DNA of 64,000 nucleotides from a virus: positions 1-64,000 of IMG/VR virus record IMGVR_UViG_3300011116_000574, one strand, 5' to 3'. How positions within the stretch are numbered: position 1 is the first letter of the stretch; each line of letters starts with the position of its first letter. This document shows, piece after piece, positions 10,048 through 46,364 of this stretch. The notes under the pieces were generated by a model. It did no database searches. It was not told where the DNA came from and saw only the letters and a program-made list of their open reading frames with translations. Both the position numbers and the translations under genes were made by a program.

Positions 10048-10065
10048 AATAGTAAACTAGAAGTA

Positions 10066-10527: not shown

Positions 10528-10533
10528 AAATAA

Positions 10534-10597: not shown

Positions 10598-10601
10598 ATA
10601 A

Positions 10602-10673: not shown

Positions 10674-10753
10674 CAAGCAATATGTATTTAATCGGTTGTA
10701 CATATTCCCACACGATGTAATGGCGTGGCAAGCCGACCTATATTAAGGAAAAA

Positions 10754-10909: not shown

Positions 10910-10912
10910 GTT

Positions 10913-11011
10913 ATGATAAAACGATTTGTAATGGGAATTGTTGGGACAGTTGGTCTAGCATTCATACTCTCTGCATTTAAGCATGAGGATAAAAATAAAA
11001 AATCTGAATAA
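10913..11011 (+). CDS. 32-aa single-pass membrane peptide (not in ORF track)
   Basis: MIKRFVMGIVGTVGLAFILSAFK...; GGAGGA SD; shares GTAATGGGAATTGTTGGG with the XapX gene. Confidence 0.5.
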   Translation: MIKRFVMGIVGTVGLAFILSAFKHEDKNKKSE

Positions 11012-18928: not shown

Positions 18929-19170
18929 GGGGATGCTTAGTTTCGACTATGTGCAGACTTTTATACAGAAGTAAAACAAACTAAAAATAAACGGCGTATC
19001 TCAAAATACCCTCGCTTTAGCTGCATAAACTAAAGCCGTGTGACGACTACATGGGAACAGAAAGTCGTACAAAACAATAAAAATTAAATAAAAATGCTAG
19101 ACAATATTACTTAAATACTGTATACTAGAAAACATATAGGACAGGGGTGCAATTCCCCTCATCTCCACAA
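18929..19170 (+). ncRNA. ssrA: tmRNA
   Basis: GGGGATG/CATCTCC-A acceptor with G3:U70, TTCGAC near 5' end, T-arm AGGGG-TGCAATT-CCCCT, tag reading GVSQNTLALAA*. Confidence 0.9.
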
Positions 19171-27885: not shown

Positions 27886-27939
27886 AGATATACTATACTA
27901 TATACATACATATATGTCAATAGATAACACATACTCTGA

Positions 27940-28190
27940 TATTCACAGGTTATCCACACATGTTGATAAACATAAAGTTAGTTACACTAAAGCATAGCTT
28001 TATCCACAGGTAATAACAAGTTATACACAACTTATCCACAATAAATGCACCCGTATTGGAATTAAATATAATATTAGACAAGCTAATTAGATATATGTGT
28101 TATGGAGCATAACATATTAACCCTCGTAATGTCAAGTATTTTGACCAAAATTGTACCAAAATTGTACAAAATTTGTATAAAATGACTGCT
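27940..28190. promoter_or_regulatory. DnaA-box cluster with AT-rich iterated repeats (candidate replication origin)
   Basis: TTATCCACA at 27950, 28000, 28032; TTATACACA at 28021; TGTTGATAA at 27961; TTGTACCAAAA-like tandem repeats at ~28140-28184. Confidence 0.65.
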
Positions 28191-28507
28191 TTTTGCTTGA
28201 AAACAAGCTATTTTGCAGAGATTTTATACGATGTTCGTAATGTTGTATTTATATAGCCCACCCGCCCCCACATATATGTATATTTATTTTGATAGACATT
28301 CCAGAGATTTTTTTGGGGGGTTCGTAATAGGGGTTATATAGCGGGCGGGACAAAAAATATATTAGGGCATAGAGAAACCCCCTAGATCTACCGCTTATCT
28401 AGGGGGCTATATTATAGACTTGGCAGAAATAGCCTGAACGCCTATGTATGTTCTATTATACTATTAGATATATTAGATGTCAAGGGAGTTTTTAATTCCC
28501 CCGACTT

Positions 28508-28750: not shown

Positions 28751-28804
28751 ACTTCTCCTTATTTAGTTGTGACCTACAAGTGTACCATACATTACCGACA
28801 TAAA

Positions 28805-29164
28805 TCAAGCAATTCTTACAATTTTGTCATCGCTGCGTACAACAATTTTTGGAGCTGTAACCTTTTCACACTCACACCAAATCATATGTTGAGAGCATGC
28901 TGCACAGTTTACAAAGCCTACTTTATAACCTTCCTTGGTATACCCATAAAGGCTTCTAGCTTCACGCTGTAGGGTTTGTGGCTTTAGCCTGGTACTTTTA
29001 GTACCCCCAAAGTCTTTTACTTTATTTAGCTTTAATTTAGGTTGATCGTCATCGAACACCCCATCATATTTAGCTAATTCAATTTTCATTAGGTCGTTAA
29101 ATCGACCACGCTCGCCCACGGTGAATCCTAGGCTTCTTAGATATTCTCGTTTAGTCATTGTCAT
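28805..29164 (-). CDS. Lsr2-like DNA-binding protein with C-terminal Cys cluster
   Basis: REYLRSLGFTVGERGRF resembles the Lsr2 RGR AT-hook domain; CAAC...CEC. Confidence 0.6.
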   Translation of the reverse strand: MTMTKREYLRSLGFTVGERGRFNDLMKIELAKYDGVFDDDQPKLKLNKVKDFGGTKSTRLKPQTLQREARSLYGYTKEGYKVGFVNCAACSQHMIWCECEKVTAPKIVVRSDDKIVRIA

Positions 29165-29235
29165 TTCCATTTCTAATAGTCTTACCAAATATGATAGCTG
29201 TGGGTAATCCCACAGCCAACCATATAACTAAATAC

Positions 29236-29703
29236 TTAAGCATTTGTTGCTTCCCAATTCTCGTCATCTTTAATAAATTCTACTGCCCAATCTACAGCCT
29301 CATAGAACGCACCATGTACTTCACCTTCTGGCAGCACATCATCGTTCCATACTTCCCACCAAGGGTTATTTTGGTAGATATCAATTCCTCGTTCGTTCCA
29401 CCACAAATCATATAACTGACCCAAATCAAAGTCGGTCTTAGCAAATCGTTCTAGGTCATCGGTGTAGCGGCACACATTAATATCATGCTCTACCCATTGA
29501 CCTGGGTTATCCAAATCTTCGGCGGGAATTGAAATACGCATCTCTCCATTACGAGCTACATGAAGTACACGATCCTTATACTCTACTAGGGCAAATGTTT
29601 CACAATCATTTGAATAGGTATAAAACTCTGCAAACTGCTTATCTTCATATACAATCTCTGTATAGGTAATAGTTACATCATCTCGGTATTCTTTAAGTTC
29701 CAT
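29236..29703 (-). CDS. acidic hypothetical protein
   Basis: SD AAGGA; NNPWWEV motif. Confidence 0.7.
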   Translation of the reverse strand: MELKEYRDDVTITYTEIVYEDKQFAEFYTYSNDCETFALVEYKDRVLHVARNGEMRISIPAEDLDNPGQWVEHDINVCRYTDDLERFAKTDFDLGQLYDLWWNERGIDIYQNNPWWEVWNDDVLPEGEVHGAFYEAVDWAVEFIKDDENWEATNA

Positions 29704-30052
29704 TATAGGTTATTCCTTACTGTTGATATAGCACTAGCATACCCGTTATGCCAAGCTTTGTCAAGGTCTATTTCTTGATAATCCCCTGCCTCTAAAAGTC
29801 TATCCCAATTCTTTGCATCTTGCTCTTCTATTTCTTTAAGTACGGCAAACATATGTTCAATTAATTCATCTTTAGTCATTTGTAAACTCCACAGTAATAT
29901 AGTCCATTAGTTCGTTTTCATTAGATAGATTAGTTATATCTGTACAGAAAGCTTCTTTAGCATACTGTACTAATTCTTCTTCTGTCATATCTTCTACATC
30001 AATTGGCTCAAAGGCGGGATTGATGTAAAAAGTAATAGATGTTTTAAGTACT

Positions 30053-30385
30053 CTATTCATTGATTAACTCCAAATCTTCGTGTGTAAGGAATAGGCAATT
30101 TGCATCAATTTCAAAGTAGTAGCCTGTATCTCTGATGATTAAATTAAACCAATCATACGCCCACTCTGCTACTAACATTAAGTCTTCAAGGATAGACTCA
30201 TCACCAGGATAGTCATCTAATTGGTTTTTAAGTTCTTTCCAATCTTCTACATTTAGGGTCAAGCCAAAGTGTAGGGCTGTTTCAACAAGTTGAATATCGA
30301 ACTCTTTACCGCTCATATTAGTGCCGTCAATCCAGCAACCTAATTGTTCTTCTGTTACATCATTTAAGTCATATATTTTCTGCAT
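30053..30385 (-). CDS. acidic hypothetical protein
   Basis: First gene after repeat 30406; leaderless after TACCAT. Confidence 0.65.
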   Translation of the reverse strand: MQKIYDLNDVTEEQLGCWIDGTNMSGKEFDIQLVETALHFGLTLNVEDWKELKNQLDDYPGDESILEDLMLVAEWAYDWFNLIIRDTGYYFEIDANCLFLTHEDLELINE

Positions 30386-31130
30386 ACCCAATGGTAGCAT
30401 AAGTTCCAGAGAAAATCAAGGGGTTTCGTAATAAAGATCTAAAAATTTATCGGGTCCACCCGCAACCCCAATTAAGGGGCTGGAGCAAAGAAAGTATTAT
30501 CAAAAGCTTCGTCAACAGCATCACAGATACCACTTACAATAAAGTCAATGGCGTGTTCCTCATCTCCGATATCTAGGCTATCTAAATACTTTGCTATGTT
30601 GTCATATATATTACTCTTTAGTTCATCATACATTATTTGATCTCCTTATTGGATTTGTGCGGTAAGGGTACTTGGGGGGTGTGCAAAGAAAGCTTCATCA
30701 AAGGTATCTACAATAACCTGACATAGGTCATCATATACCCACTGCCTATCAACATCTAGATATTGTGACTGAACGGTATCCATATAAGATAGGATATTCT
30801 CTTGCAACTGTTCTCTTAAGTCATTTAGTGTCATTTGATTTTCTTCTTTCCAATAGTTACTGACGGATATACATTATAGAAATGTTTGACAAACTCAAGA
30901 GCCGTATCCCACTGCTCTAATTCAATACCTGTATCATTATGCATTTCAACTAGGTCATCTGCTAGTCGTTCTAATAATCTTAAGTCAATTAGTTTACTCA
31001 TATAGATACTATCTCCGTCTCAAACTCGTATAAATCTTCACCGTGATAACTACACCACGCATAATAACCGTCACTTACATCAAACAAAGAAACTTCATCT
31101 TTGCACCTACGACATACGATAAGTTCTTCT

Positions 31131-31304
31131 TTACTCATCTTCATCATCTTCCGTTACATACTGTTCATCTACATCAATGGCATACACTTCTGAGAAATTT
31201 GTATAATCTTCCCACTTCCAGCCCTCTGCTTCTGCTTCTGCAATATTATCTGCTTCCACTTCATAGTTAAACTTAACTGTTACTTCTACATCATACTTAG
31301 GCAT
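31131..31304 (-). CDS. small acidic protein, VEA..EA family (not in ORF track)
   Basis: MPKYDVEVTVKFNYEVEADNIAEAEAEGW...; coupled to upstream ORF. Confidence 0.65.
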   Translation of the reverse strand: MPKYDVEVTVKFNYEVEADNIAEAEAEGWKWEDYTNFSEVYAIDVDEQYVTEDDEDE

Positions 31305-31718
31305 AAGACACTTCCTCTATTTCGGTTGAATAAGAAAATTCTAGTGGAGCAAAGCCACACCAGTCTTTTAGAAAATCATTGGCTTTTTGTACTATTACTT
31401 GCTCTTCATAAATCATATCGTCTAGCGAACCCCTAGAGTTAATATTTACTAACTCTAGGTTGTCTACATCTACGGTTGTAGATAAAACAAAATAGTCTGC
31501 GATAAATGTTACTTTATATGAATTCAATTTCTACTCCATTGTTTTGGTAATCTACTGCTTCATCTTCGTGATATACATTATGACCCTTTGCCTCAAAGTA
31601 GTCAAACATATCTTCATAGTCTACACCATCAGGGTCGGCGGTGTCAAGAATAAATTGGTTATATTCTTCTTCATCTAACTCTATAGTATAAGTATGTAGC
31701 ATAGCCACATCATATGTT

Positions 31719-31901
31719 TTAACTAACCTGATAGTCATTGTATTCCCCCCATAGAATTTCATCTGGAATTGTTTCCATAGTGTCAAGATTGACGATAGTA
31801 TGTCCGTCTACAAAGTATTGGTTGTCACGATACATTGTTTCTGCTTCCTCAAATGACTCTGCTTCAACAAATGCTGTGATAGTAATTTCATATTCTGCCA
31901 T
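31719..31901 (-). CDS. small acidic protein, VEA..EA family
   Basis: MAEYEITITAFVEAESFEEAE; GAGG SD. Confidence 0.7.
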   Translation of the reverse strand: MAEYEITITAFVEAESFEEAETMYRDNQYFVDGHTIVNLDTMETIPDEILWGEYNDYQVS

Positions 31902-32321
31902 TTTGTTCCTCTCGGTAGTTGATACATCAATGGTATCAGATAGGTCAGACATAATCAAGTATAATCTCGGAGATTTTTTAGATCCTTCGTAATTAGAGCT
32001 TTAAAGGCGGGCGAACCCGAATACCCCATCTAATGATAGATGGGATACTCAAGGCGATCTAAGATAGTTGCAATTTTTCCTTGACAATATTCTGCAATCT
32101 TCTTTGCTTTATCTAAATCTTGAACAGTCAAGTCAAACGAGTTGTCTGCGTACTGCTCTGTTTCTAATCCATATTTCATAGCCTCAAACATACCAGCCAA
32201 CTGGTGCTTGGAACTTGGGGTTGTAATTGTTACAATCATTTTCTGTTTTCTCCTAGTTATGTGAAAGTGGGGTTTTTATTGTGGTTATCCCCAGCCACAG
32301 TTTACCTACCTACCCGTAGAG

Positions 32322-32789
32322 TTAGCCCTCGTTACAATAGACGACAAAGGTATCGTAGTCTTGGATTTCGTAGTCAGAGTTTTCGCTGATGATGTCAAAC
32401 GAGAAGTCGTGACCCTCTACGCTATCTGCATCAGTACCGACTGGTAGTGTCATTGTAACCGAGAAAGTTACATTTACATCAACGGTTGCTTCATTGGTTA
32501 GTTCAATGTCAAGCAAGCGAGCAATTTCATCTGCGTGGTCGCCTAGTTCATCATAGTTTTCAATTAGGTAGTCACGAACATTGTCAATTCTACCCTCTAA
32601 CTTGGTGTTGCGACTTGCTAGAATTGCTTTGTTGCTGTAAAGAGAAGTGACCTCGTGTGCTTCAAGGACTTTTGGTGTTACGCCTGAATAAACAGGCTGA
32701 TGTGTATTCACCACAATCTTGGCGTATGGGTCATAAGTTAGTTCGTCTGTTACGGTTTCGGTGCTTGCGTGTTTTGGTGCGTATGTCAT
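32322..32789 (-). CDS. acidic hypothetical protein
   Basis: AAGGA SD and cassette promoter. Confidence 0.75.
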   Translation of the reverse strand: MTYAPKHASTETVTDELTYDPYAKIVVNTHQPVYSGVTPKVLEAHEVTSLYSNKAILASRNTKLEGRIDNVRDYLIENYDELGDHADEIARLLDIELTNEATVDVNVTFSVTMTLPVGTDADSVEGHDFSFDIISENSDYEIQDYDTFVVYCNEG

Positions 32790-32948
32790 TTGTTTTCCTT
32801 ATCGGGTAGTTGTTATTACAATAATACACTATGGGGGCGACATAAATCAAGTAAAAGTCCAGAGATTTTTGAAGCTTTCGTAATTGACTTATCCAGGATC
32901 GGGATAACCCGCACCCCCCACAAAAGTGGGGGGTGGAGATTTACCTAC

Positions 32949-33716
32949 CTACTCAACCTCAAGTTCATCAAGTTCAGCAATACGCTTTTCGGCTAACAAT
33001 CTAAATGGGCAATCATCAAATAACCACTCTGACTGTGCTTCTAATTCATCTTTAGGTAGGGTTAGGATTTGTTGAGTTGTGTATTCATCAACTTCCCCCC
33101 ACACACAAGCGGTACAAGGTATGTCAAGTGCCATAAAGTCTGCGTGACTAGGGCTATCTACAAACTGGTCAGATACAAGTACGCCACCTGCGTAATGTAA
33201 CTTACCTGCAAAGAAGTTGGCTTCCTCTGTAATCTCATACTCAAACTCAAGATTAGGGAAACGCTCTGCCATAGCGTCATACGCTTCTACGGCTGGCGAC
33301 CAAGCGGTATCAAAAGACCAGTTAAAATACCAGTTACCGTCATTACGCTGGTCAAGGGTTATGTATTCTCGGTCTAAGGTTTTATCCCACTTAGTACCCC
33401 AGTTACGAACATTCCAATCGTACCAATGATTAGATACGGCTAGTTTATGCTCTATCTCTGGCAAAGATGAATTGAAATCTGTGCTTGCGGAAATCTTGAT
33501 TTTGCTTTGTGAGGCAAAGTATTCGTCAAGGATTTCGGCTGGCGGTGTAATAAAGTTCCAAAAAACACCTTTATCATTTTCATCTAAAACATTTGTATCT
33601 GTCTGATAGTCATAGTGATTAGATGTATGTGGCTTATCGGCAAAGTCTAGAAACTCGTTGAGTTCTGCTTCTGTCTTGGCTGATACGATTACTGAATTGA
33701 AACACCAGTTTGGCAT
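32949..33716 (-). CDS. DUF1281/YubB ferredoxin-like protein
   Basis: MPNWC.N, WYDWNVRNWGTKW, FDTAWSP. Confidence 0.8.
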   Translation of the reverse strand: MPNWCFNSVIVSAKTEAELNEFLDFADKPHTSNHYDYQTDTNVLDENDKGVFWNFITPPAEILDEYFASQSKIKISASTDFNSSLPEIEHKLAVSNHWYDWNVRNWGTKWDKTLDREYITLDQRNDGNWYFNWSFDTAWSPAVEAYDAMAERFPNLEFEYEITEEANFFAGKLHYAGGVLVSDQFVDSPSHADFMALDIPCTACVWGEVDEYTTQQILTLPKDELEAQSEWLFDDCPFRLLAEKRIAELDELEVE

Positions 33717-33752
33717 TTGCTTGTCCTTTCGGTAGGTTGTTAGACTATCTTA

Positions 33753-33953
33753 TCAGTTTTCGGGGGTAGTGTCAAGAGAAACTTCAACACCATCCCAATC
33801 ATAAATTGAATTTGTTGAAACCTGCAATGGCTGAAATGTTGGATCTGTGTTAGCCCAGTTTTCTGCGATAGTTAGTGCTTCATCATAACTGTCTGCTTCA
33901 ATGTGAATTTCATCTGAAACTGTGTAAGTTAGGTATGCGGTGTATGTTGACAT
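33753..33953 (-). CDS. small acidic protein, VEA..EA family
   Basis: MSTYTAYLTYTVSDEIHIEADSYDEALTIAE; AGGAG SD. Confidence 0.65.
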   Translation of the reverse strand: MSTYTAYLTYTVSDEIHIEADSYDEALTIAENWANTDPTFQPLQVSTNSIYDWDGVEVSLDTTPEN

Positions 33954-34204
33954 TTTTTCTCCTGTTGGTAGTTGGTTTGTAGTATGTGGGGGACTGGTCT
34001 TTAGTTCTAGAATTTCAACCATTTTCTCGTACCGTCTAGTGGTATTAGCCCCACATACATTATCTAGTGTACACTATGGGTCAGACATAATCAAGGATAA
34101 TTCCAGAGAATTTTTGGTAGCTTCGTAACTAGGGTAATTATGGCGGGTCAACCCGATCAAAAAAATTTTGTCAAATTTACTTGACAAACCCCGAAGGGCT
34201 GGGG

Positions 34205-35197
34205 TTATACCCCAGCCACTTCAGTTACGATTGACAACAGTTTATTTTTTTCTGCGTTCACAACAGGGTCAAAACCTGCTGTTCCCATAAGTAGACTTTC
34301 GTCATTACCGCGAGAAGTTCTGAACCAATCAAGGCGTTCGGTTAAAGCGTTGTACGCACCCCAAGCGTTGCCAGCAATCATACCGTTGGTATCGCCAACA
34401 TAGATTTCCTCTAGCAATTCAATCTTGTTTTCCCATTTCTTTACAGCACCCTTTTTGTCTGCTTCTGGCATTGGGTATGCAAGCGAAACAATCTGGTCAA
34501 ACTGTGCCTTGCTGATTTCAGTTTCAATCATAGCGTGTGCAAGTTTATCAAACTCATCAAGGTATGCGTTAGCAAGACCTAATGCTTCGCGAGCCTGTGC
34601 AACTCTACCGTCAATGGACTGCGTGTGTCGCAACTTGAAAGATTGGTTAGCACCCTTGCGGAATACTGCGGTGTGAGTATTCATACAGGTTAGGCGGATT
34701 GGTGTAACAGTAGCCTGAACAGCACTAGAACCATCGTGGCTCGTAGAGATAGCAAGGTAGTTCTTGACAACATCACGAACACCATTAGGGTCAAGTACGG
34801 TTTCACGCTCTAGGGCTAACGCACCGAAAACGATACGACCATTTTTCAATGAACCAGCAACTTCCCAACGACCACCGTCAAGTAGGTTATCGCCAAACGC
34901 AAAAAGTTCCTCGTTCTGTAAAGTTTTGTAACGCTTGCCCACAACTGACAAAACATTTGAGTGCTTGTCCTCTGGGTGGTCACGCACAACAAGAAAGTTC
35001 TCGGCGGTCATAGAATAGTTATCAGGTAATGGGATTTCCTCTAAGCGAACATTCCAATTATCTAGGTTTGCTAAAGATAGCATTTCAGAAGTAGTAACTT
35101 CATTTTGGAACACAGTTCCAAGTTGGTGGTAGGCAGGTGTACGCAGGGAAGCGTAAGAAGCCTGACCGTTGATGATTTCAATTTGGTCAATTGCCAT
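34205..35197 (-). CDS. DUF932 phage/plasmid-like protein (TIGR03299-type)
   Basis: PAYHQLG, YKTLQN, AGSLKNG, SHDGS, TPIRLTCMNT, RHT, NAWGAYNALTE. Confidence 0.88.
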   Translation of the reverse strand: MAIDQIEIINGQASYASLRTPAYHQLGTVFQNEVTTSEMLSLANLDNWNVRLEEIPLPDNYSMTAENFLVVRDHPEDKHSNVLSVVGKRYKTLQNEELFAFGDNLLDGGRWEVAGSLKNGRIVFGALALERETVLDPNGVRDVVKNYLAISTSHDGSSAVQATVTPIRLTCMNTHTAVFRKGANQSFKLRHTQSIDGRVAQAREALGLANAYLDEFDKLAHAMIETEISKAQFDQIVSLAYPMPEADKKGAVKKWENKIELLEEIYVGDTNGMIAGNAWGAYNALTERLDWFRTSRGNDESLLMGTAGFDPVVNAEKNKLLSIVTEVAGV

Positions 35198-35347
35198 TTA
35201 TTTCTCCTAAGTTAGATTTACCTACTAAGTGTAACACAGGGCTATGACATAAATCAAGGATTATTTTATTTAATCTCGGAGATTTTTTTGCCCCTTCGTA
35301 ATTGGATACGAAAGGGCGGGTCAACCCGCAGCTGCGGGTTTGTCAAG

Positions 35348-35421
35348 CGATCTGAACGGGACTTGAACCCGCAACCTCCGCCGTGACAGGGCGGTGCGCT
35401 AACCAATTGCGCCATCAGACC
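35348..35421 (-). tRNA. tRNA-Asp(GUC)
   Basis: Reverse complement GGTCTGA...CCGCC-CTGTCAC-GGCGG...TTCAAGT...TCAGATC-G. Confidence 0.93.
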
Positions 35422-35536
35422 AAGAAATGCGGGGAGATTTGCAACTCTCCCCGCACCCTGTTATGTTTATTAAATCTATCTATACACTCACCAAGCAATA
35501 ACATACAAAATGCTAGGCTACTGTTTTCTTGGCACT

Positions 35537-36007
35537 TTACCAAGAAGCCTGATACTCAAAATAATCAAACTTAGAAGCAAGGCAACGGTCAATTATTGCA
35601 ACCGTTTCTTTCAGGTCTACAAAATAGTATTCGTCATACTCGGTTGAACCAAAAAAGAAACCTGCACCTGTTGGCAAAAGTTCTGATGCCAAACTATTGT
35701 CGGCAAGAACCTGCTCACATAGAGATTTCAATTCCTCTAAATTCTCACGAGTAACAAACATTTTCTGACACTCGTCAATGCCATTACCAATAGTTTCAAC
35801 AAACCAATTATGGATTTGATTTGACTTACGCCAATAACCCATAGGGAAGTCAATAGAGATACCGCCAAAACTATCTTTAGAAACTTGGTCGGAAACACCA
35901 AACTGCTCTACAATCTGGTAAAACAATTCGTTGCGGTTGTCGTTATCGTTATCCCAATCGTATCGGGAAATGTATTCGCTTGCTGATAGGTATTGGTCTA
36001 ATCCCAT
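35537..36007 (-). CDS. conserved phage protein (MGLD...YWRK.NQIH.WF family)
   Basis: Recognisable motifs including GFFFGSTEYDEYY. Confidence 0.75.
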   Translation of the reverse strand: MGLDQYLSASEYISRYDWDNDNDNRNELFYQIVEQFGVSDQVSKDSFGGISIDFPMGYWRKSNQIHNWFVETIGNGIDECQKMFVTRENLEELKSLCEQVLADNSLASELLPTGAGFFFGSTEYDEYYFVDLKETVAIIDRCLASKFDYFEYQASW

Positions 36008-36186
36008 TTAGAACTCCTTATTTGTTGGTAGGTAAAAAGTGTATCAGATTATTTAGTTATTGTCAAGGGTTTGTGAGCCTTGCCTGTCACTTGCCGTAGT
36101 TTCGTATCTAGCCCCCACACATCTAGTGTTGTTACTAGGGGAACGCAAGCCGTTAGCCGTTTTATTACACTCACACCCTTGCTAGA

Positions 36187-36339
36187 CTACTTTACAGTTG
36201 TCCAGCGGTCTTGACCATTTACATCAAGACGAACACGCAAAGAGCCATTTGCGTTTGCGACAATCTCTTTTACGACACCCGTAACCTTAGACTTTTCGGT
36301 GGTTAGAGTATTGCCAACTTCAATAGATGATTTATCCAT
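36187..36339 (-). CDS. small SH3/KOW-like protein, divergent paralog
   Basis: VGNTLTTEKSKVTGVV...RVRLDV...RWTTVK, similar to 43042/44144/44828. Confidence 0.7.
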   Translation of the reverse strand: MDKSSIEVGNTLTTEKSKVTGVVKEIVANANGSLRVRLDVNGQDRWTTVK

Positions 36340-36978
36340 TTTGCTTCCTTTCGTAGTTTGTCTTACAAGTTTAGCATAGGGGTAGGACAAAAATCAAGGA
36401 TTATTGCTCAAGTTTTTCAATTAGTTTGTGGTACAACTGAACAAGTAATTCGGCATCATAATCTTCATAGGTGTCTACCCACTCAAGCAGTTCGTCTTTG
36501 CAGTGACGAATACCGTCTGCAAAACCATCTTCATAGTTACTCATAGCAACTCCTTTCGTTTCACATAGACTACCATACAATAGATAAAAAGTCCAGAGAA
36601 AAATAGGCAGCTTCGTAATTGACAAACCCCGAAGATCGGGGTATCCCGATCCCCCCAGAATTGGGGGGCGGGAATTAAAGTTCCTTATCGTGCTTTTCCC
36701 AAGCAATTATAGAACTAAAGATAAGACCTATCATTGAAAACACAAAGCCGACAACACACACACCAATTAGAACATCTAACATTAAGACCCCAACTTTTCT
36801 ACAAGCATTTCCTCATAGTCTACATAGTCTGCTTCCATTAGTTCATCATTGAAATGCCATACCTGATGATTGGGGTCAAATGCAACACCTTCATTTTCAA
36901 ATTTTACCATTGTGGTGTCAATGTCAATCTCAAACTTATCTGTGTCCTCATCATAAAAAACTACAAAATGATACTGCA

Positions 36979-37146
36979 TTATTCTACTTCCAATCCATAA
37001 ACATCATACTCAAAATGCTGACTGACTATTTTTAGGTCGTCTGCCATAAGTTCGTCAAAAATCTTTATGGCTTCCTCTTGTGTGTCGGCTTCTATGATGT
37101 CCTCAAACTCGGTTACTCGTTTAGATGAAAAATAATAATTTGGCAT
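36979..37146 (-). CDS. small acidic protein, VEA..EA family (not in ORF track)
   Basis: MPNYYF...IIEADTQEEAIKIF. Confidence 0.6.
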   Translation of the reverse strand: MPNYYFSSKRVTEFEDIIEADTQEEAIKIFDELMADDLKIVSQHFEYDVYGLEVE

Positions 37147-38774
37147 TACACCACCTTTTCCAAAATCTTAGTTAGTTGTTCTAGTGCTTCTGGCGATAGT
37201 TCATCTACCGCTTTCCAATCTATAACTGCTTCCCAATCTATCATTACTGCCCCACTCCAAAATCTGTTGCTACAATTTCAACTGCTTCATCAAGACAGTC
37301 AATTAGATTTGCTAATTGTTCTGGGGTCAAATCCTCTACCATAAAACTAGGTAATTCGGACTTCCACGCTATCTGTGAGCGGTAAGTATTGCCACACTCG
37401 GCACATTGTTCTGACATTTGTTTTCCTTTCGGTAGGTTTATGTTTCAATGGTACACCATAGGTCAGACATAAATCAAGGATAATCCAGAGAAATTTTAAG
37501 TGTTTCGTAATTGACAACCCCGCAGCAGCGGGGTACCCCGAAGGGTGGTAGATCTAACTACCCCACTCTATGCTTACTTGGGCGGAACTACCAAATAGTG
37601 CCTGGACAAAACCATTAGCATAGTAACGGTGGTTCTCGTTATCTTTATCAAACTCAAATGGAACCTTGCTCAAAAACTCTTGCCAATGGTGGTCTATGTC
37701 CTCTGAATAGACAGACCAGTTACCCTCGCGGTATTGGCGACTAATAGTTGCTCTCATCTTATCCCCCAAATAATTCGTTTAGTTTGTCAATGTCGTTGCC
37801 GTTCACAATTTCACGCACTTTTTCAGAAACACCGTCAAACTTGCGAACAAAGTAATCGCCTGTGTCACCGCTTATGCTGTATGTGACAGACTTGGCTTCT
37901 GTTGTGTGTTGTGTGTTGTTGTACATAACATCTGAACCAAACTCTAGACGACCAATAAAGTCAATCATACCTTCGGTAGTAATGTCAGAAAGACCAAAGC
38001 CGTATTCACCTGTTTCCAACATCATACGGATAATGTCTGTTTCATCATAGGTTGTTTCAATTCGGGCGGTAATTTGATAGGTCATTAGTTTATTTCCTTT
38101 TCATAGTTGATGATTGTAAATGATTTTGTTTCCTCGTTGTAAATACACTTTACCATAAAAGTCATACAATGTAAAGAGATTTTGTAAGTTCTTACTTCTA
38201 GGTCATAAAAAAAGTTGTCGCCCTCCCATTCAATAGGGCAAGCGTTCCAAAGAAGTTCGTGCATAAAACTATCTTTGGATACAGGTTCTAATGTTTCTAG
38301 TAATCGTTTCATTTGGCTCATACATAAAGAATAGCAGGTACATCTGACAAAATCAAGAATAATTCCAGAGATTTTTTGGCAGCTTCGTAATTTACATTAC
38401 GAAAGATCGGGTTATCCCGCACCCACCCCAAAGGGTGGGCGGTGGATTAGAGCCACTCTGTCAAATCACCATCACCATAGTAATCTTGCTTATGACCATC
38501 TGCTTCAGCAATTACTTCCCAAAGTTCATCTTCGGTAAAATCGCCATCTGGATACCACTCTGCTAGTAATTCATAAACTGCTTTATCCATTAAAATAAAT
38601 CCTCTACTTCCTCTACTGAATAGCCGTGAGCAAACCTATGAGCAATTACAATACGCATACTGTCGGTTGCTTCGTCAATCGCTTCCCACATTTCCTCTGT
38701 CCAATCATTGGTGTCTAGCAAGAGAATGCCCTCGCCATCACCATAGTTTCCGTCTGTTGCGAAATAATGTCCCA

Positions 38775-39104
38775 TTACACTTCCTGCCAAATCATCATAC
38801 TCTCAAACGAGTAACCATTTACTGTATTTTTAGTTAGGTCAATCTCTACCCACTCTGACCAATTATCAAATGTGACTTTAGGATTTACGGCAAAGATACC
38901 ATAACCTGTTTCATCAAGGATTTCATTTTGGATTAGGTGTGAAATAACCATACGAGTCCAATAAGAGTGGTCGCCTATTCGTGGTTGTGCGTGGCGAATT
39001 GCTTGGGCTAAATCGTGTTCCCAACTGTCTGCCCCCCAATGTGAATAAAGTGCGACTGCGTGGTCAGTTCCGTCATTGAATACAAAGGTTACTCTAGCAC
39101 CCAT
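38775..39104 (-). CDS. conserved hypothetical phage protein
   Basis: MGARVTF...LYSHWG; conserved leader AACCTACCGAAAG. Confidence 0.7.
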   Translation of the reverse strand: MGARVTFVFNDGTDHAVALYSHWGADSWEHDLAQAIRHAQPRIGDHSYWTRMVISHLIQNEILDETGYGIFAVNPKVTFDNWSEWVEIDLTKNTVNGYSFESMMIWQEV

Positions 39105-39939
39105 AATTTTCTCTCTTTCGGTAGGTTGATAAATCAAGTGTAGCAGTCTTGTCTGACATTTTCAAGGATAATTCCAGAGATTTTTGAACATCTTCGTACT
39201 TGACAACCCCGCAGCAGCGGGGTATCCCGCCTTTCGGCGGGGCTTTAATGGTTATTCCCAGAAGTCCTGTATTTCAGACAAGTCGTTGATACTTTCAATG
39301 TTGGCTCGCTCATAGCATAGGTAAAGCGTATTTAGTAAAGCGTGACCAATCATAGAAGCGGTGTCATAAGAAGCCAAATCTGCTTCTGTTAGATAATCAA
39401 AGTCAAATTCTTTTTCTGTTTCTGATAAAGCAAATAGGTATTGCTCTACAAGAGTTTCAAAGTCAATGAACATCTTGCCCTCGTGAACCATTGAATTTAG
39501 TTCGCCGTCTGCTATAAACATTTCTTTCCTTTCGGTAGGTTATGTAATAATCTTAGCACACATTACCGACATTTTCCAGAGAAATTTTAACTAATCGTAA
39601 ATAAGCTGAAAAAGATCGGGGTAGCCCGAAGACCCAGTTTGTCAAACTGGGTCGCAGGTGGTGTAGAAAAATTGGATACTATCCGCAGGAACATAAATTA
39701 TTTCATCACCTGTTTTTGTTTCAAAAGATAGTAATCCGTTTTCAATACGGAAAGCATTGTCTGGGTGAACATCTGGGAACTCATAGGGGTTAGCAATTCC
39801 GTTTGGTTGTTCTTTGTAGACAATGTGTAAGTTAGTTTGAAATTCCATTTAGTAGTCCTCTTTCGCTTCTGGTACACTAGCACCGCATAGCATACAGGTT
39901 GGGTTGGTTCTGTCTGTTACATTGACAATCGGGTGAACT

Positions 39940-40155
39940 TTACACTCTTTCATTTTTCAATAACGCCTTTCGCTCGTCACCGAGTAGACCGCCATAAATA
40001 CCGTCTACACTTTCATTTGAGAGTGCGAACTCTAAGCACTCTGATTTTACAGGGCAAGCGTTACACAATGACAACGCCAACGCCCTATCTTTTAGTTTGG
40101 CACTAAAAAAGATTTCTGGGTCTGCCTCTAAGCAATTTGCCTTATCCTGAAACAT
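39940..40155 (-). CDS. whiB: WhiB-family transcription factor (early)
   Basis: ANCLEADPEIFF...CNACPVKSECLEFAL...GIYGGL. Confidence 0.92.
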   Translation of the reverse strand: MFQDKANCLEADPEIFFSAKLKDRALALSLCNACPVKSECLEFALSNESVDGIYGGLLGDERKALLKNERV

Positions 40156-40313
40156 AATCTGCCTTTCGTTTGTTGGTAATACTATTATGACACACGCCAC
40201 CGACATTTTTGGTAGCGACACGCACAATTTCAGAGATTTTTTTGGGGCTTCGTAATTTGACAAACCCCGAAGATCGGGGTACCCCGATCCCCCACGAAGT
40301 GGGGGCGGGAAGG

Positions 40314-40781
40314 CTAAAGTCCCAACCCTTCGGCAAGAGAGTTAGCAATTGCTCTAACCTCTATTGCCCAATGCTCTGATAAGTCATCTTCAAGCATCTT
40401 TTCTGATAAGTCAAAGAGTTGTTTTACATAGTCTGGAACGCTGTCAGGTTGTGTTACTAGGTCTTCATCTTCATCAAGCCAAGCATCATCTACATAGTCT
40501 TCATCATAGCACCAAGCGGATAGGTGGTGTTGTTCAATGATTGCCCAAGCAGGTGCGGTTGATTTACCATTTTTGTAGAATACACCTTCAGGCAGTTCAA
40601 TTTCTAGACTGCCATTGTCTTCATTGTAAGCGTTGATTGCTTCAATACAAGGCTGAACCATAGTCAATGGGATTGGTGGATAGTGATTGCTTGTTAGTTG
40701 AATAGCAATTTGCTGTTCAAGGCTAATGTCAATACCGTATTCTGATAGACTTGCTAAGTCGTTTGCTGTGTTGTTACCCAT
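40314..40781 (-). CDS. hypothetical protein
   Basis: NHYPP...CIEAI...IIEQHHL, acidic tail. Confidence 0.7.
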   Translation of the reverse strand: MGNNTANDLASLSEYGIDISLEQQIAIQLTSNHYPPIPLTMVQPCIEAINAYNEDNGSLEIELPEGVFYKNGKSTAPAWAIIEQHHLSAWCYDEDYVDDAWLDEDEDLVTQPDSVPDYVKQLFDLSEKMLEDDLSEHWAIEVRAIANSLAEGLGL

Positions 40782-41119
40782 AAGAGTTACCAACCTTTCT
40801 TGTGTTTTAGTTTGCGAGTGTAGGCTTTCTTATTTTTATGACCACCGCTTGCGTTGGAACGGCGTAATTCCAAGCGAGCCTGTAACTGTTCAGGTGTTGC
40901 CTGTGTTGCTGTAATCATTTTCTTTTTCATACCTAAAGAATAGCACACCTCACCGACAATTTCCAGCATAACCCAGAGATTTTTTTGGAGTGTCGTAATT
41001 TGACAACCCCGCTCTGGCGGGGTATCCCGATCAGCCAGCTTTGTCAAGTCGGCTGTCGGTGTGTCTAATCTTTTTCGCTAAGAATTATGGCGATAAATTG
41101 CAATAGCATATAAATTAGT

Positions 41120-41653
41120 CTATTCATGTGAACCCCTGTAAATTATCCAGATTAGTGCTTGTGTTGTGCGAGGTGTTAGCCCCATTGCCTTAGCAACATC
41201 TTTAACCGCTTGTGCCATTTCGCGGTATTGTGTTTTATTTGGTGCATTGGTATCTAGTCCACCTGCGTAGCACATCCATACATCTATCGTTACCGCATTT
41301 TCATCGCCAGCAATTGCACGAGCGAACGCATTAGTTTTTAAGCCTTTAAGTGCATTGAACCCTAGCACTAAACTATTTTGTGCCATAACTAAATTGTTTT
41401 TTAGTCCTGTCGCTTTTCCTGTGTGTGCGAATTCTAACGCTTGCACAACATTTCTTGCCCAACGCTGACGAGGTGAGAATGATGAAACAACACTAGCACC
41501 ATTTTCAATAGTTGCTTTTATGCCACGACTAGCAAGAATACGCACAACATCGTGTGCCACTAATTCTGCATCTGCATACCATTGCGTAGCCAATTCAATT
41601 TGGGTAGCGGTTGCCTTTTTTGCAATTGCGAGGTAGTGGTTGAAGTAATCCAT
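41120..41653 (-). CDS. conserved phage protein, possible HhH-GPD/glycosylase-like fold
   Basis: WY, SPRQRW..N, KT..F, VTIDVW, QALIW motifs. Confidence 0.55.
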   Translation of the reverse strand: MDYFNHYLAIAKKATATQIELATQWYADAELVAHDVVRILASRGIKATIENGASVVSSFSPRQRWARNVVQALEFAHTGKATGLKNNLVMAQNSLVLGFNALKGLKTNAFARAIAGDENAVTIDVWMCYAGGLDTNAPNKTQYREMAQAVKDVAKAMGLTPRTTQALIWIIYRGSHE

Positions 41654-41779
41654 TTTTGCTCTTTTCGGTAGGTTGTAGTAATACTGTACCAGATACCGCC
41701 GACATTTTCCAGAGAAATTTTAGGCGTGTCGTAACTTGACAACCCCGCCTTGGCGGGGTACCCCGAAGGGTGGTGGGAA

Positions 41780-42076
41780 TTAGTTTTCCCAACCAAACAA
41801 AGAGCCTTCCGCATAGTCATCAATCATGTAGTCCATGTCACCAGAACCAAAAATAGCGTTCCAACAGTCACCGCAAGTACCTGTAATAAAGCGTTCACGA
41901 ACATCAACATCAAAATCAGATAGGACATCTTGAACATAAGCACCTTGATTGTATGCGTACAGTTTTTCAGGGGAAATCTGAATAGTGATAGTTTCATCAC
42001 AGGTTGGGCAAACCTTAGAAGTAACTGAATAAGCGGATAGGTCGGCGGTCTTGACAATGTTATTTAGAGTGAACAT
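41780..42076 (-). CDS. small zinc-ribbon protein
   Basis: CPTC...RERFITGTCGDCW. Confidence 0.75.
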   Translation of the reverse strand: MFTLNNIVKTADLSAYSVTSKVCPTCDETITIQISPEKLYAYNQGAYVQDVLSDFDVDVRERFITGTCGDCWNAIFGSGDMDYMIDDYAEGSLFGWEN

Positions 42077-42195
42077 TTTTTCTCCTTTAGGTTAATAGTT
42101 TTATTGTAGCATAACGCCCAGACATTTTCTAGAGATTATTTTGTGGTGTCGTAACAAGGCGAAGCTTGGCGGGGTACCCCGCAGGGTGATTGGGA

Positions 42196-42417
42196 TTATG
42201 CATCCCAACCAAAAAGGTATCCCTCAAAGCCCCTGTCCTCGTCACCCTCGTCAACTTCACAGACACACTCGTCTGTGCCACCGCAACTTGGGCATTCGTT
42301 GTCGTAGTCGTAGTCAGAGTATGGGTCATAAGTGTCAAGCAAAGCCTGTGTCCTTTCATCCTCAAATTGGTTATTCCAGATTTCCATCATTGTTTCGGCG
42401 GTGTAGAACTCATCCAT
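42196..42417 (-). CDS. very acidic Cys-containing small protein
   Basis: CPSCGG..ECVC; D/E-rich; ends LFGWDA like neighbour LFGWEN. Confidence 0.7.
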   Translation of the reverse strand: MDEFYTAETMMEIWNNQFEDERTQALLDTYDPYSDYDYDNECPSCGGTDECVCEVDEGDEDRGFEGYLFGWDA

Positions 42418-42749
42418 AGGTACTCCTCAAGGTTAGGTTGATAAAATAATTGTAGCAGGGTGCGGTGACATTTTTCAGAGATTTTTAAGGGGTGTCGTAA
42501 CAAGGGTTGGAGATCGGGGTACCCCGAAGGGCTGTGCTTGTCAAGCCGACACGCCTACAAGACATTGTATGTTGCTAAAAAAACAAAAAGAGGGGAAAAA
42601 CAAATAAGCAACATCAGAGGCAGGTCAAAACGGTATGCCTTGCCATTTGTTTTTTCATAATTATCTAGTTCAATAGCACCTAACCAACTAAAACCAAAGG
42701 TAATAAGTGATAGTGCCGAAGCGATTAAGATTGTTTCCATTTTTTCTCC

Positions 42750-42890
42750 TTATGAGTAGTAATCGGCTAGAGTGTCAAAGTCTGAATAATAGGCAGGGTC
42801 ATCATAAGCACCATAGCATTCTGGGCAAAGTAGGTTGCCATTGTTTCCAACATAGTCCATTTCAATTTCGCAAAATACGCAAAGTTCCAT
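42750..42890 (-). CDS. acidic zinc-finger micro-protein (not in ORF track)
   Basis: MELCVFC...LCPECY; GGAG SD; cassette promoter. Confidence 0.65.
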   Translation of the reverse strand: MELCVFCEIEMDYVGNNGNLLCPECYGAYDDPAYYSDFDTLADYYS

Positions 42891-43041
42891 TTTTATCTCC
42901 GTTCGTTATGCTTCAATTTTAACACAGGCTACTGACATTTTTCCAGAGATTTTTTGAGTGTGTCGTAACTTGACAAAGATCAAAAACGGGGTACCCCGCA
43001 GGGGTCGGCGTGTCAAGTCGACACGCCGAGTGTCTTGTGAA

Positions 43042-43194
43042 TTACCGCAAGGTAATCCATTTTGTTTCGGTATCAGTTTCCACCAATACACGAACAATTT
43101 TATCGCCACTCTTGGTGGTCTGTTCTGCTACATCTAGGGCAACACCTGATGTGTTACCGCTTGCTGATGTTACTAGGTCTCCGATTTTTACCAT
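43042..43194 (-). CDS. small SH3/KOW-like protein, paralog (not in ORF track)
   Basis: MVKIGDLVTSASGNTSGVALDV...KIVRVLVET...KWITLR; AAGGAG SD. Confidence 0.8.
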   Translation of the reverse strand: MVKIGDLVTSASGNTSGVALDVAEQTTKSGDKIVRVLVETDTETKWITLR

Positions 43195-43770
43195 TTGGTT
43201 CTCCTTTAGTTTGATGTTGCTATTGTAGCGGATAGGTCTGACAATTCTTGATTTACTCCGTCAATTTCTCGCTGTAAAGTTTCGGTGAGTTGTCGCTTTC
43301 CAAAGCCATTATCTAAGCCAATGGATAAAAGATAACCAACCTTTATCCAACCGTGTAGGCGGTCAGCGGTTCTTGGGTATTTTATTTTATCCAATTCATA
43401 CACAGCATTTACTAATTCCTCAGAAAGGTCTGCGAGTAATTTTTTGTCTGTCATTTGTTTCTCCATTTCGTTTGATGTTTTAATTTTAGCACGAGCCACC
43501 GACAAAAATTATTTTTGAGTTGCTTTTGCGATTTGTGCTATTTTTTTGGCATCTGCTTTACGCTGTTCGTCACGCTCTGCTTTTACCATTTTTTTCCAGT
43601 CATCAAAATTCATTTTTTCTCCTATTGGGTTGGTAGTTCTATTATGACAGACACCACCGACATTTTTCAAGGATAACTCAGAGATTTTTTGGGCGTGTCG
43701 TAACTTGACAAAGATCAAAAACGGGGTACCCCGCCCACCCCACTTTGTCAAGTAGGGTGGGGTCTTTGGG

Positions 43771-43944
43771 TTAGAACGGAACTTCATCCCAAAGGCTTTC
43801 CTGCTCACGCATTTCATCATAGAAAAAATCAGGGTCGCACTCTGGACACATAATCATCTCGCACTCGCAAGGGATGCCGTCAAACATCCAATCTGGAGAT
43901 GAGGTCTTGAAACTGACAGGGGCGGTGAAATCAAAATCTGACAT
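43771..43944 (-). CDS. acidic Cys micro-protein (not in ORF track)
   Basis: MSDFDF...CECEMIMCPECD...EVPF. Confidence 0.6.
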   Translation of the reverse strand: MSDFDFTAPVSFKTSSPDWMFDGIPCECEMIMCPECDPDFFYDEMREQESLWDEVPF

Positions 43945-44143
43945 TTTGAGCCTTTCGGTTGGTGAATACTAAAATTGTAACACAGGGGGCAGACATAAAT
44001 CCAGAGAAAAATAAGGTGTGTCGTAACTTGACAAAGATCAGAAAACGGGGTACCCCGATCTAATCCAGAGATTTTATTTTATCATCGTAACTAGAAGAAT
44101 AAGCTGCCCCGCCAGGGGCGAATTTTTTCGCTGTTGAAGTGGA

Positions 44144-44329
44144 TTACCGTAGGGTAATCCATTTCATTTCGTTACTGTCAGTTTCCACTAACACGCGAAC
44201 AATTTTTTCACCAGACTTAGTGGTGAAAGGTTGAACATCAACCGCCACGCCTGAAGTGTTGCCACTCGCAGAAGTGACGAAATCGCCAACAGTTACATTT
44301 TCCAATAATGCTTCAAGAATGTTACCCAT
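44144..44329 (-). CDS. small SH3/KOW-like protein, paralog
   Basis: VGDFVTSASGNTSGVAVDV...KWITLR. Confidence 0.8.
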   Translation of the reverse strand: MGNILEALLENVTVGDFVTSASGNTSGVAVDVQPFTTKSGEKIVRVLVETDSNEMKWITLR

Positions 44330-44383
44330 TTTTATCTCCTTTGTTTATGTTTCAATTGTAGCAGGGGGGACTGACAAAAATTA

Positions 44384-44524
44384 CTAATGTAATTCTGAAC
44401 AGTCTTTCATAGTACCGTCAAGCAGATACTCTACGCAATAACCGCAAACTGTGTTTAGGTCACATACAGGGCAAGATACCCACTCTGACCACTCATCACA
44501 AAACATTGAACAATAATCTAACAT
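44384..44524 (-). CDS. Cys-rich micro-protein (not in ORF track)
   Basis: MLDYCSMFC...CPVC...CGYC. Confidence 0.6.
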   Translation of the reverse strand: MLDYCSMFCDEWSEWVSCPVCDLNTVCGYCVEYLLDGTMKDCSELH

Positions 44525-44827
44525 TTGAACCTCTTTTCTTTATACCAAAATTGTACCACGCACCACCGACAAAAATTGAAACGACACGCCCAAACCCAGA
44601 GAATTTGACAAGGCTTCGTAACTGTGATAAAATTTTTGCCCCTGGCGGGGCGAAATTTTCGCCCCACTTTTTTATCGGTCTTTTAGAATTCCAAAAGCGA
44701 TTACGAATAGGGCTAGGGGTACGAACATTACGAACTCTGAGTGAATAAAGTTGTGTAGCATTTTATCTCTTTTCTTTTTGGTTATGGAATTAGTTTAGCG
44801 GATAGGTGTGACATTTTTTGAGGTGGA

Positions 44828-44983
44828 CTACCGTAGGGTAATCCACTTCAATTCGTTATCTTTAGTTTCAACCAAAACTCTAACGATTTTTTCGCCAGCC
44901 TTAGTTGTCATAGGGTTCACCTCTACGGCTACGCCTGAAGTGTTGCCACTTGCCGATGTTACCAAATCGCCGATGTTTGTCAT
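44828..44983 (-). CDS. small SH3/KOW-like protein, paralog
   Basis: MTNIGDLVTSASGNTSGVAVEV...KWITLR; AAGGAG SD. Confidence 0.8.
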   Translation of the reverse strand: MTNIGDLVTSASGNTSGVAVEVNPMTTKAGEKIVRVLVETKDNELKWITLR

Positions 44984-45652
44984 TTGCGACTCCTTTTCTT
45001 TTTGTTGATAAATCAATAGTACCATACGCCACCGACATTTTTTGACAGACACGCCGACAAAATAGATCCAAATTGTATACAATGTTTTTTGCGACACGCC
45101 GTCAGAGAATTTGACAACCGCTCGTAAATAAGCTAAAATTTTTGCCCCTGGCGGGGCGAAATTTTTTCGCTATTTTTTTCGGCGGGCGATTATGATTTTT
45201 CCTCGCTCTCTTTACTATCTGCACACGCAGAATAAATAAATACGAATGGCATTGATGCGAATACGATTACGGATACGGTTAGGGTTATGTTTAGTAGTGT
45301 TAGCATTTTTTCTCTTTTCGTTAGGTTGATGTTTCAATTGTAGGGGATAGGTACGACATTTTTACCAATTAGGTTTCATACCCTTGTGAGTGTCGCAAGT
45401 GTTTCCTGTACCTTGTTGGATAGGGCAGAAACAAATTACACAAGCAATTTGAACGGCGTTAGGGGTAACTAGGGCTAGTTCCAATTCAACGCTATCGGCG
45501 AATGATAGTTCGCTACTGTCAATCTGATTTTCACCATTTACGATTTTGATGTATCCCATTTTTTTCTCTTTTCTTTTTCTTGATGTTTCAATTGTAGCGC
45601 ATAGCACCGACATTTTTTGACAGACACGCCAGAGATTTTTGCGGGGCAAAAA

Positions 45653-45668
45653 TTGAACAAATGTTCAA
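45653..45668. promoter_or_regulatory. palindrome matching the GAAC-N4-GTTC LexA core
   Basis: TTGAAC-AAAT-GTTCAA at the divergence point of the early region. Confidence 0.45.
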
Positions 45669-45841
45669 ATTGGCGGGGCAAAAATTTTACCATAGGGGTA
45701 TGACAAAAACGGTTAGCGACACGCCGAAAATAAAAAAACATTGGATACAATCTTTTTTCAAAACACTAGCCAAAATGCCCAAAAATGTCGGCGGTATGTG
45801 TTACCATTGATGTATCAACAAAAAATGAAAGTAGGTTCAAA

Positions 45842-46000
45842 ATGGACATTTTGGAAAAAGTAGTCAAGCAACGCCTAGCAAATGCTAAGGCAACCGCAAC
45901 CAATTTTGATGAATTGGGTTATGACAGTAGTGCCGAATTTTGGCATAGTGTCGCTGGAATTCTTGAAGCAATTCTTGATGAGGCAGAGATTTGGGCATAG
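45842..46000 (+). CDS. small hypothetical protein (divergent early cassette)
   Basis: TGTC-N12-TACCAT promoter at 45786; SD before MDILEK. Confidence 0.7.
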   Translation: MDILEKVVKQRLANAKATATNFDELGYDSSAEFWHSVAGILEAILDEAEIWA

Positions 46001-46064
46001 CCCAAAAATGTCTGCCCTATCCGCTACAATTGACACATAAACAAAAAATGAAAGTTGGTAAAAA

Positions 46065-46364
46065 ATGTCATACTCTTACAATCCTAACGGCGAAAAGGTT
46101 CACGCCTACATTTTGGAACTAGACGCAATTTCGTTCGGCGTACTAATGGCGAATTTCGCGCATAGTATTTTTTCAAATGATAGTTGCGCCTACACAATTG
46201 AGAAATGGTGGAAATTCTGTGATGATGTAGCAGAATGGCTAATTTATGATGATGAGGAATTTGCGAATTCCCTAAACATTTATACGCCGACAGAATGCGC
46301 CGATTGTGGCGGAAAAGGTTGGTCATTGAACCCGATTGAACACGAATACTATTGCGGTTCATAA
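46065..46364 (+). CDS. small hypothetical protein
   Basis: TGTC-N12-TACAAT promoter at ~46009; followed by terminator. Confidence 0.7.
   Translation: MSYSYNPNGEKVHAYILELDAISFGVLMANFAHSIFSNDSCAYTIEKWWKFCDDVAEWLIYDDEEFANSLNIYTPTECADCGGKGWSLNPIEHEYYCGS

Follow-up and report, generated by a model that had tools for sequence, protein, structure and literature searches.

The present analysis concerns a promoter class that recurs through a block of small phage genes in the first 64 kb of the 100,657-bp IMG/VR virus record IMGVR_UViG_3300011116_000574 (G+C 37%); these 64 kb are referred to below as the window. The portal protein is approximately 55% identical to those of the Stanwilliamsviridae Streptomyces phages Wakanda, Coruscant, and Comrade, two WhiB-like genes are present on the record, as an earlier note on this DNA had said, and DNA of the phage occurs in freshwater, drinking-water, and viral metagenomes, whereas a search for RNA runs that contain window 37000-46100 found none. 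Portal kinship, WhiB-like genes, low G+C, and freshwater occurrence together point to a phage of a low-GC freshwater actinobacterium. When the WhiB protein was used as a query, the only matches were at 36-55% identity, in genomes of Microbacteriaceae and Acidimicrobiia. The block consists of roughly 50 small genes and 29 copies of the promoter, lying between 28,779 and 46,030, and about 40 of its proteins have no Pfam match, the exceptions being WhiB, DUF932, DUF7178, and a DUF1281_C domain. Each copy carries the tetramer TGTC 12 nt upstream of a -10 hexamer, and the patterns detected are probably those of PafBC-type promoters, i.e. of a host switch that the phage has borrowed.

All 29 copies are oriented like the small gene downstream, and in most of them 25-34 nt separate the end of the -10 from a start codon with a Shine-Dalgarno sequence. 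The exact form TGTC-N12-TANNNT accounts for 27 copies and two more have a CATAAT -10. The earlier note had counted about 28 copies of the exact form, and every coordinate it listed was found, although those near 40.18 and 43.64 kb are the two with CATAAT and the copy at 45684-45705 (minus strand) had been left out. It was also correct that the left-hand copies carry TTGATT at the -35 and the right-hand ones an A/T tract. The copies from 28.8 to 38.3 kb, all on the minus strand and all with TTGATT, are TGTCGG-N10-TACACT at 28779-28800 (TTGATT 18 nt from the -10, and a TGn extension), TGTCTG-N10-TACCAT at 31930-31951, TGTCGC-N10-TATTAT at 32821-32842, TGTCTG-N10-TACACT at 34066-34087, TGTCAT-N10-TACACT at 35228-35249 (the predicted promoter of the DUF932 gene at 34205-35197), TGTCCT-N10-TAAACT at 36368-36389, TGTCTG-N10-TACCAT at 37448-37469, and TGTCAG-N10-TATTCT at 38328-38349. 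From 39.1 to 46.0 kb the copies have an A/T run, two of them with TTGAAA. Still on the minus strand, these begin with TGTCAG-N10-TACACT at 39137-39158, which has TTGAAA upstream, and TGTCGG-N10-TAAGAT at 39550-39571, where the A/T run occupies the -35 place. There follows the first variant, TGTCGG-N10-CATAAT at 40184-40205, predicted to drive a WhiB-like gene at 39940-40155 (minus; 71 amino acids, PF02467, without an AT-hook), which thus itself stands behind a TGTC-box promoter. Beyond it are TGTCGG-N10-TATTCT at 40937-40958, TGTCGG-N10-TACAGT at 41683-41704 (the predicted promoter of the DUF7178 gene at 41120-41653), TGTCTG-N10-TACAAT at 42103-42124, TGTCAC-N10-TACAAT at 42449-42470, TGTCAG-N10-TAAAAT at 42916-42937, TGTCAG-N10-TACAAT at 43222-43243, which overlaps the end of the upstream gene, TGTCGG-N10-TAAAAT at 43483-43504, and the second variant, TGTCGG-N10-CATAAT at 43641-43662. 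The remaining minus-strand copies are TGTCTG-N10-TACAAT at 43974-43995, TGTCAG-N10-TACAAT at 44355-44376, TGTCGG-N10-TACAAT at 44550-44571, TGTCAC-N10-TAAACT at 44792-44813, TGTCGG-N10-TACTAT at 45016-45037, TGTCGT-N10-TACAAT at 45337-45358, TGTCGG-N10-TACAAT at 45591-45612, and, in tandem 93 nt upstream of the latter, TGTCAT-N10-TAAAAT at 45684-45705. Two copies on the plus strand point rightward: TGTCGG-N10-TACCAT at 45786-45807, with 34 nt from -10 to start codon, and TGTCTG-N10-TACAAT at 46009-46030, the predicted promoter of an open reading frame at 46065-46364.

Read on the gene strand, a cassette runs from the end of the previous gene through one or two GC-rich hairpins to the word TTGTCAA-gTTACGA(A/C) and the module AAAAATCTCTGGA, then to TTGATT or the A/T run, TGTC with a G-rich or GACC-type stretch, usually TGn, and TAcaAT, after which a conserved leader ACATCAACCTACCGAAAGGAG leads to the ATG. 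Within the box itself, all 29 copies have TGTC, 22 have G at position 6, and 11 have the full TGTCGG, while the base before TGTC in the 27 exact copies is A (19) or T (8) and never G. The extended -10 TGn occurs in 21 of 29 copies. A -35-like hexamer 18 nt from the -10 occurs in ten (eight TTGATT, two TTGAAA), and the other 19 have the A/T run only.

The motif is far more frequent than chance would give, and its spacing is fixed. The window holds 37 matches to TGTC-N12-TANNNT against 11.3 +/- 3.3 in shuffles (maximum 21), and 27 of the 37 fall within 28,779-46,030, 25 of those on the minus strand; for the tighter form TGTCNG-N10-TANNNT, 21 were seen in the window where 1.9 +/- 1.5 were expected. 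One match, at 32582 on the plus strand, sits within a gene of the other strand and probably arose by chance. Three further tests did not pre-select TGTC. Sites of TGNTANNNT have TGTC at the fixed offset in 19 of 71 cases in the region and in none of the 257 that lie in the rest of the 100-kb genome. When spacings from N7 to N17 were scanned there was a single peak, at N12 with 25 copies, neighbours from N8 to N17 numbering 0-4, and this peak holds both for the window and for five relatives; the 7 copies counted at N7 are due to TA...T within the box-plus-spacer of TGTC(T/A)GACCTAT copies and do not represent separate sites. Finally, among distinct sites of the window and relatives that were picked by the downstream core and -10 alone, the tetramer was TGTC in 50/56 and 94/111, with no one-base variants. 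A standard sigma-70 scan of the region found 61 promoters against 47 by chance and missed most of the TGTC copies, which shows that these are not canonical promoters. Three promoters of the block that have a perfect TTGACA (17-18 nt) all lack the TGTC box, as would follow from the box taking the place of a -35. The suggestion in the earlier note that these promoters form a class of their own, in which a box near -28 to -25 does duty for the -35, is supported.

Patterns in related phages are consistent with selection on the box. Relatives were found by searching IMG/VR with the DUF932 protein of the block, which yielded 17 loci; most of these, at 58-96% DUF932 identity, have 11-27 motif copies on the gene strand where 1-2 are expected, and the commonest 7-mers of the relatives include AAATGTC, ATGTCAG, and TGTCAGA/T. 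(Viral contigs were also scanned with TTACGA-N7-AAAA-NN-TCTCTGG, which turned up seven loci; several of these are single chance matches.) At orthologous promoters of the window and the closer relatives TGTC is kept and the spacers are altered. In one distant relative, L018 (~60% identity), there are 19 copies of TGTCAGTGGT-N6-TATAAT in which the upstream sequence is unrelated and often takes in the stop codon of the gene before, the bases of the 6-nt gap are random, and no copy has either TGn or a -35. The persistence of the box, and of its register with the -10, while the flanks diverge argues that both are under selection rather than merely inherited as repeat sequence. One relative is complete (113 kb, with terminal repeats), and its motif copies adjoin the genome ends, as would be expected for genes that enter the cell first. 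There was no motif enrichment in the Streptomyces phages Wakanda and Comrade. Coruscant is similar in layout, since in the terminal repeat of its genome (L030, bases 1-11000) every small gene has a repeated promoter to itself and a GC-rich palindrome upstream, with approximately 15 promoters of the form GGCGCCCGGCGCC palindrome-TTGnnn-N17-TAAGCT, one per small gene. These are, however, ordinary -35/-10 promoters (TTGnnn at 17 nt, TAAGCT as the -10), and TGTC, which occurs at the same offset in only 5 of the ~15, is neither conserved nor followed by G-G.

The element that this box most resembles belongs to the host. PafBC-type promoters are the switch of the actinobacterial DNA-damage response. 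Their 22-nt in vivo consensus is tGTCgg(N10)tA(N3)T, of which the 3' part is the -10 read by SigA; the helix-turn-helix of PafB recognises a "-26 element" (-23 to -28) by way of both guanines in the GTC triplet, and the promoters lack a -35, PafBC being placed between sigma domain 4 and the DNA in what has been called sigma adaptation (PMC8635444). If the -10 of the phage copies is set at -12 to -7, the phage box spans -28 to -23, a geometry identical to the PafBC consensus. The likeness thus extends to the 22-nt layout of tGTCgg, 10-nt gap, and tAnnnT, to the position, to the invariant GTC, to the SigA-type -10, and, in about two thirds of the phage copies, to the missing -35. The phage copies differ in being dense on the genome and in preceding small genes of unknown function rather than repair genes, in mostly adding TGn, in having a -35-like hexamer in ten cases, and in having an A/T run directly upstream of the box.

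The same signal appears to be in use in a lineage from which the host may come. Genomes with the best matches to the phage WhiB were scanned, and one of these, the freshwater Microbacteriaceae MWH-Ta3 (G001), has intergenic TGTC(A/G)G(A/G/T)GG-N6-TAnnnT sites upstream of genes as well as two adjacent 333-codon WYL genes, the usual arrangement of pafB and pafC. Its recA has gaaTGTCGG-N10-TACCGT 104 nt upstream. Nine of its motif sites precede ribonucleotide reductase, a ParA-like ATPase, MetK, and several unknowns; these genes say little by themselves, and the recA site is the clear one. Over 41 genomes of the family Microbacteriaceae, TGTCRG-N10-TANNNT summed to 1079 against 242 for the reversed control. 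The recA site, the WYL pair, and the enrichment across the family together imply that the motif is a working signal in this lineage, which is a candidate host lineage for the phage, although the true host may differ. Copy density is approximately 1.6 per kb in the phage block and roughly 0.01 per kb in host genomes.

We therefore regard it as probable that the 29 sites are PafBC-type promoters and that the phage has borrowed the PafBC switch of its host, a reading that also draws on the absence from the phage record of a WYL protein and of a sigma factor, given in detail below. In the mechanism proposed, host SigA would read the -10 hexamer, often with its TGn extension, and the PafB helix-turn-helix would read the TGTC(G/A/T)G box at -28 to -23 as a -26 element, with PafBC bridging sigma domain 4 and the DNA so that a -35 would be unnecessary. 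Single-stranded DNA activates PafBC, whereas stress leaves the level of the protein unchanged (PMC11804915, PMC6789036). Since the activator would be constantly present, the phage would fire its block of roughly 50 small genes once infection yields single-stranded DNA, possibly from entering or resected DNA ends, from breakdown of host DNA, or from replication. The TGn copies and the left-hand TTGATT copies would probably also fire at a low level by SigA alone. Because TGn (21 copies) and -35-like hexamers (ten) allow firing independent of PafBC, dependence on it may not be equally strict in left and right copies. Early expression of the block is plausible from the gene layout; like PafBC binding and the single-stranded-DNA trigger, it is something we infer from sequence. 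Several points weigh against this reading. With TGn in 21 of 29 copies and a -35-like hexamer in ten, many of the promoters might need SigA alone, and published PafBC promoters, unlike these ten, have no -35. Seven of the 29 copies lack G at box position 6. PafBC of the true host may prefer a different box. A single-stranded-DNA signal at the start of infection is an assumption. The phage record is only about 81% complete and a gene for the reader of the box could lie in the missing part; the complete relative also has no WYL domain.

An alternative explanation could be that these are plain host SigA promoters, for which the extended -10, together with TTGATT on the left, suffices, the box being either a passive inheritance from a duplicated promoter unit or a feature of the spacer that aids RNA polymerase with no part for PafBC. 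Actinobacterial promoters often need little beyond a -10, the counts of TGn and -35-like hexamers given above are as this explanation would have them, and the units are clearly repeats of one another. It would not account for the observation that TGTC and its spacing are invariant while their neighbours drift, both in the window and in distant relatives, nor for the conservation in L018 of only the box and TATAAT, nor for the three promoters with perfect TTGACA that have no box. We consider it rather unlikely.

It is also conceivable, though improbable, that a phage factor without a WYL domain, either a small protein or one borne by the virion, reprogrammes the polymerase in the manner of MotA/AsiA, the likeness to PafBC promoters reflecting convergence or mimicry. 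There is room for such a factor among the roughly 40 proteins without a Pfam match, and the earlier note had aptly likened the box to the MotA box of phage T4, a comparison that the structural study of PafBC itself draws, with the qualification that the PafBC complex leaves sigma domain 4 without remodelling (PMC8635444). As in T4 middle promoters, the place of the -35 is taken by a box that lies about 12 nt ahead of a housekeeping -10, and there are many copies before phage genes. The MotA box differs, however, in having a TGCTT core rather than TGTC, T4 practises sigma appropriation through MotA plus AsiA as opposed to the sigma adaptation of PafBC, and the adaptor in the present case would be a host protein. 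MotA and AsiA (PF09114, PF09010) are absent from the 100-kb record, as is any HTH_11 match or sigma homologue, and no WYL domain was found in the phage record or in five relatives, one of them the complete 113-kb genome. Nearly every gene of the block lies behind a TGTC promoter, so a factor encoded in the block could not start its own expression. Finally, the box is identical to the host consensus in its sequence as well as in its position and spacing, which is most simply explained if the phage relies on the host protein.

A third possibility is that the box is the operator of a repressor, like the "stoperators" of L5-type mycobacteriophages, which silences the block later in infection. This would fit the many copies in a single orientation in short intergenic spaces, and TGTCA-like words (TTGTCAA, TTGACAA) do occur in the upstream modules. 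An operator, however, does not need the exact 12-nt register with the -10, which is kept even where the gap is random, and the block was found to contain no gene for a repressor-like helix-turn-helix protein. We think this very unlikely.

Least probable of the readings that assign the box a protein, and hardly to be entertained, is that of the earlier note, in which the GACA core of the bottom strand would be an activator site recognised by host WhiA together with phage WhiB. It draws on the two WhiB-like phage genes, on the phylum of the host, and on the words GACAC near the right-hand repeats, which are indeed enriched on the gene strand (28 copies in the 18-kb region against 26 in the other 82 kb). 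These words lie mainly within the upstream module TTACGACAC and the GGCGTGTC repeats, and not in the box. The WhiA site in Streptomyces is GACAC (PMC4850268); because the base before TGTC is A or T, the bottom strand of the phage box reads GACAT or GACAA and never GACAC. Moreover WhiA sites have no fixed register with a -10, the 5-mer carries little information, and the 22-nt match goes to PafBC. WhiB-like proteins such as WhiB7 work via an AT-hook at an A/T tract upstream of the -35, and known members act at or upstream of the -35; an AT-hook is absent from both phage WhiB sequences, the phage A/T run occupies the -35 position itself, and the box is downstream of it. A phage sigma factor with a short spacer was rejected, there being no Sigma70_r2 match in the phage and only one weak Sigma70_r4 match (14 bits, below the cut-off).

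The cassettes contain further elements. Between 36638 and 44056 on the minus strand, GC-rich hairpins separate cassettes: the palindrome CGGGGTACCCCG occurs in 8 copies, solely between cassettes and nowhere else in the genome, and GGGGTATCCC in 3, each followed by the TTGTCAA-gTTACGA and AAAAATCTCTGGA modules. These are likely terminators plus upstream promoter context. The palindrome CGGGGTACCCCG includes a GGTACC site of the KpnI/Acc65I type, and it has TTGACAA on its upstream and TTGTCAA on its downstream side, two words that are mutual reverse complements. In the other reading direction, the TTGTCAA module forms part of two antisense promoter candidates, TTGACA-N17-TAAAAT at 44605-44633 and 45111-45139 (plus), which aim back into the preceding cassette. 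Near the rightmost promoters, GGCGTGTC(G/T) or its complement GACACGCC is found in 10 copies in the region against 2 elsewhere, with repeats at 42990-43030, 44590-44660, 45040-45110, and 45620-45680 (minus), and among the GGCGTGTC words there is one perfect 10-bp inverted repeat, TCGGCGTGTC...GACACGCCGA; the GGCGTGTC word may be a second regulatory site. Ordinary promoters without a TGTC box are also present on the minus strand, TTGACA-N17-TAAGAT at 33747-33775, predicted for the gene at 32949-33716, and TTGACA-N17-TACACT at 36038-36066, predicted for the gene at 35537-36007. A tRNA-Asp gene at 35347-35421 (minus) lies alone in the small-gene block, between two cassettes, and the remaining five tRNA genes are at 6.8-11.2 kb on the plus strand.

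To the left of the block is a 706-bp gene-free stretch (27802-28507) with three perfect DnaA boxes (TTATCCACA) on the plus strand at 27950, 28000, and 28032, a span of 90 bp; only one other copy, in the opposite orientation, occurs in the 100-kb genome. The cluster at 27950-28040 may serve as a replication origin for the phage, with DnaA supplied by the host. Directed into the same stretch is a perfect consensus promoter, TTGACA-N17-TATAAT at 28455-28483 (minus), and approximately 80 nt downstream of it is a hairpin, CCCCCTAGAT...ATCTAGGGGG, with a T-rich tail; promoter and hairpin may produce a small RNA or an origin transcript. Elsewhere, ARAGORN called a transfer-messenger RNA (tmRNA) at 18929-19168 (plus) with the tag GVSQNTLALAA and Rfam gave no tmRNA at its gathering score; the call is probably false. 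The first 45 bases of the record (window 1-45) match its last 45 (100,613-100,657) with one mismatch, which may be an overlap left by assembly, the genome being circularly permuted or terminally repeated, or may come from two paralogous helix-turn-helix genes.

The promoter class itself was already known, and what appears to be new, as far as the literature that we found, is its mass use by a phage. No description was found of a phage that wires a whole gene block to the PafBC switch, and searches on Streptomyces phage promoters, on Stanwilliamsviridae, and on the literal box word gave nothing relevant. The phage might even do more than borrow the switch: with 29 boxes multiplied by replication it could also soak up limited host PafBC and so blunt the DNA-damage response of the host, and it may make the single-stranded-DNA trigger itself at entry, for example by a virion enzyme, or alternatively a phage protein without a WYL domain could read the box; this is a speculative extension to which we give little weight.

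If the proposed reading is true, PafBC would be a host-supplied counterpart of T4 MotA/AsiA, and the phage could do without an activator of its own, since infection itself trips the single-stranded-DNA alarm of the host. The finding would also bear on recent reports, as these are cited in PMC12848934, that tie pafBC to phage sensitivity in mycobacteria. The phage would provide a natural set of PafBC-type promoters of varied make-up, with and without TGn and with and without a -35, and there would be a testable timing rule for gene expression in abundant, uncultured lake phages.

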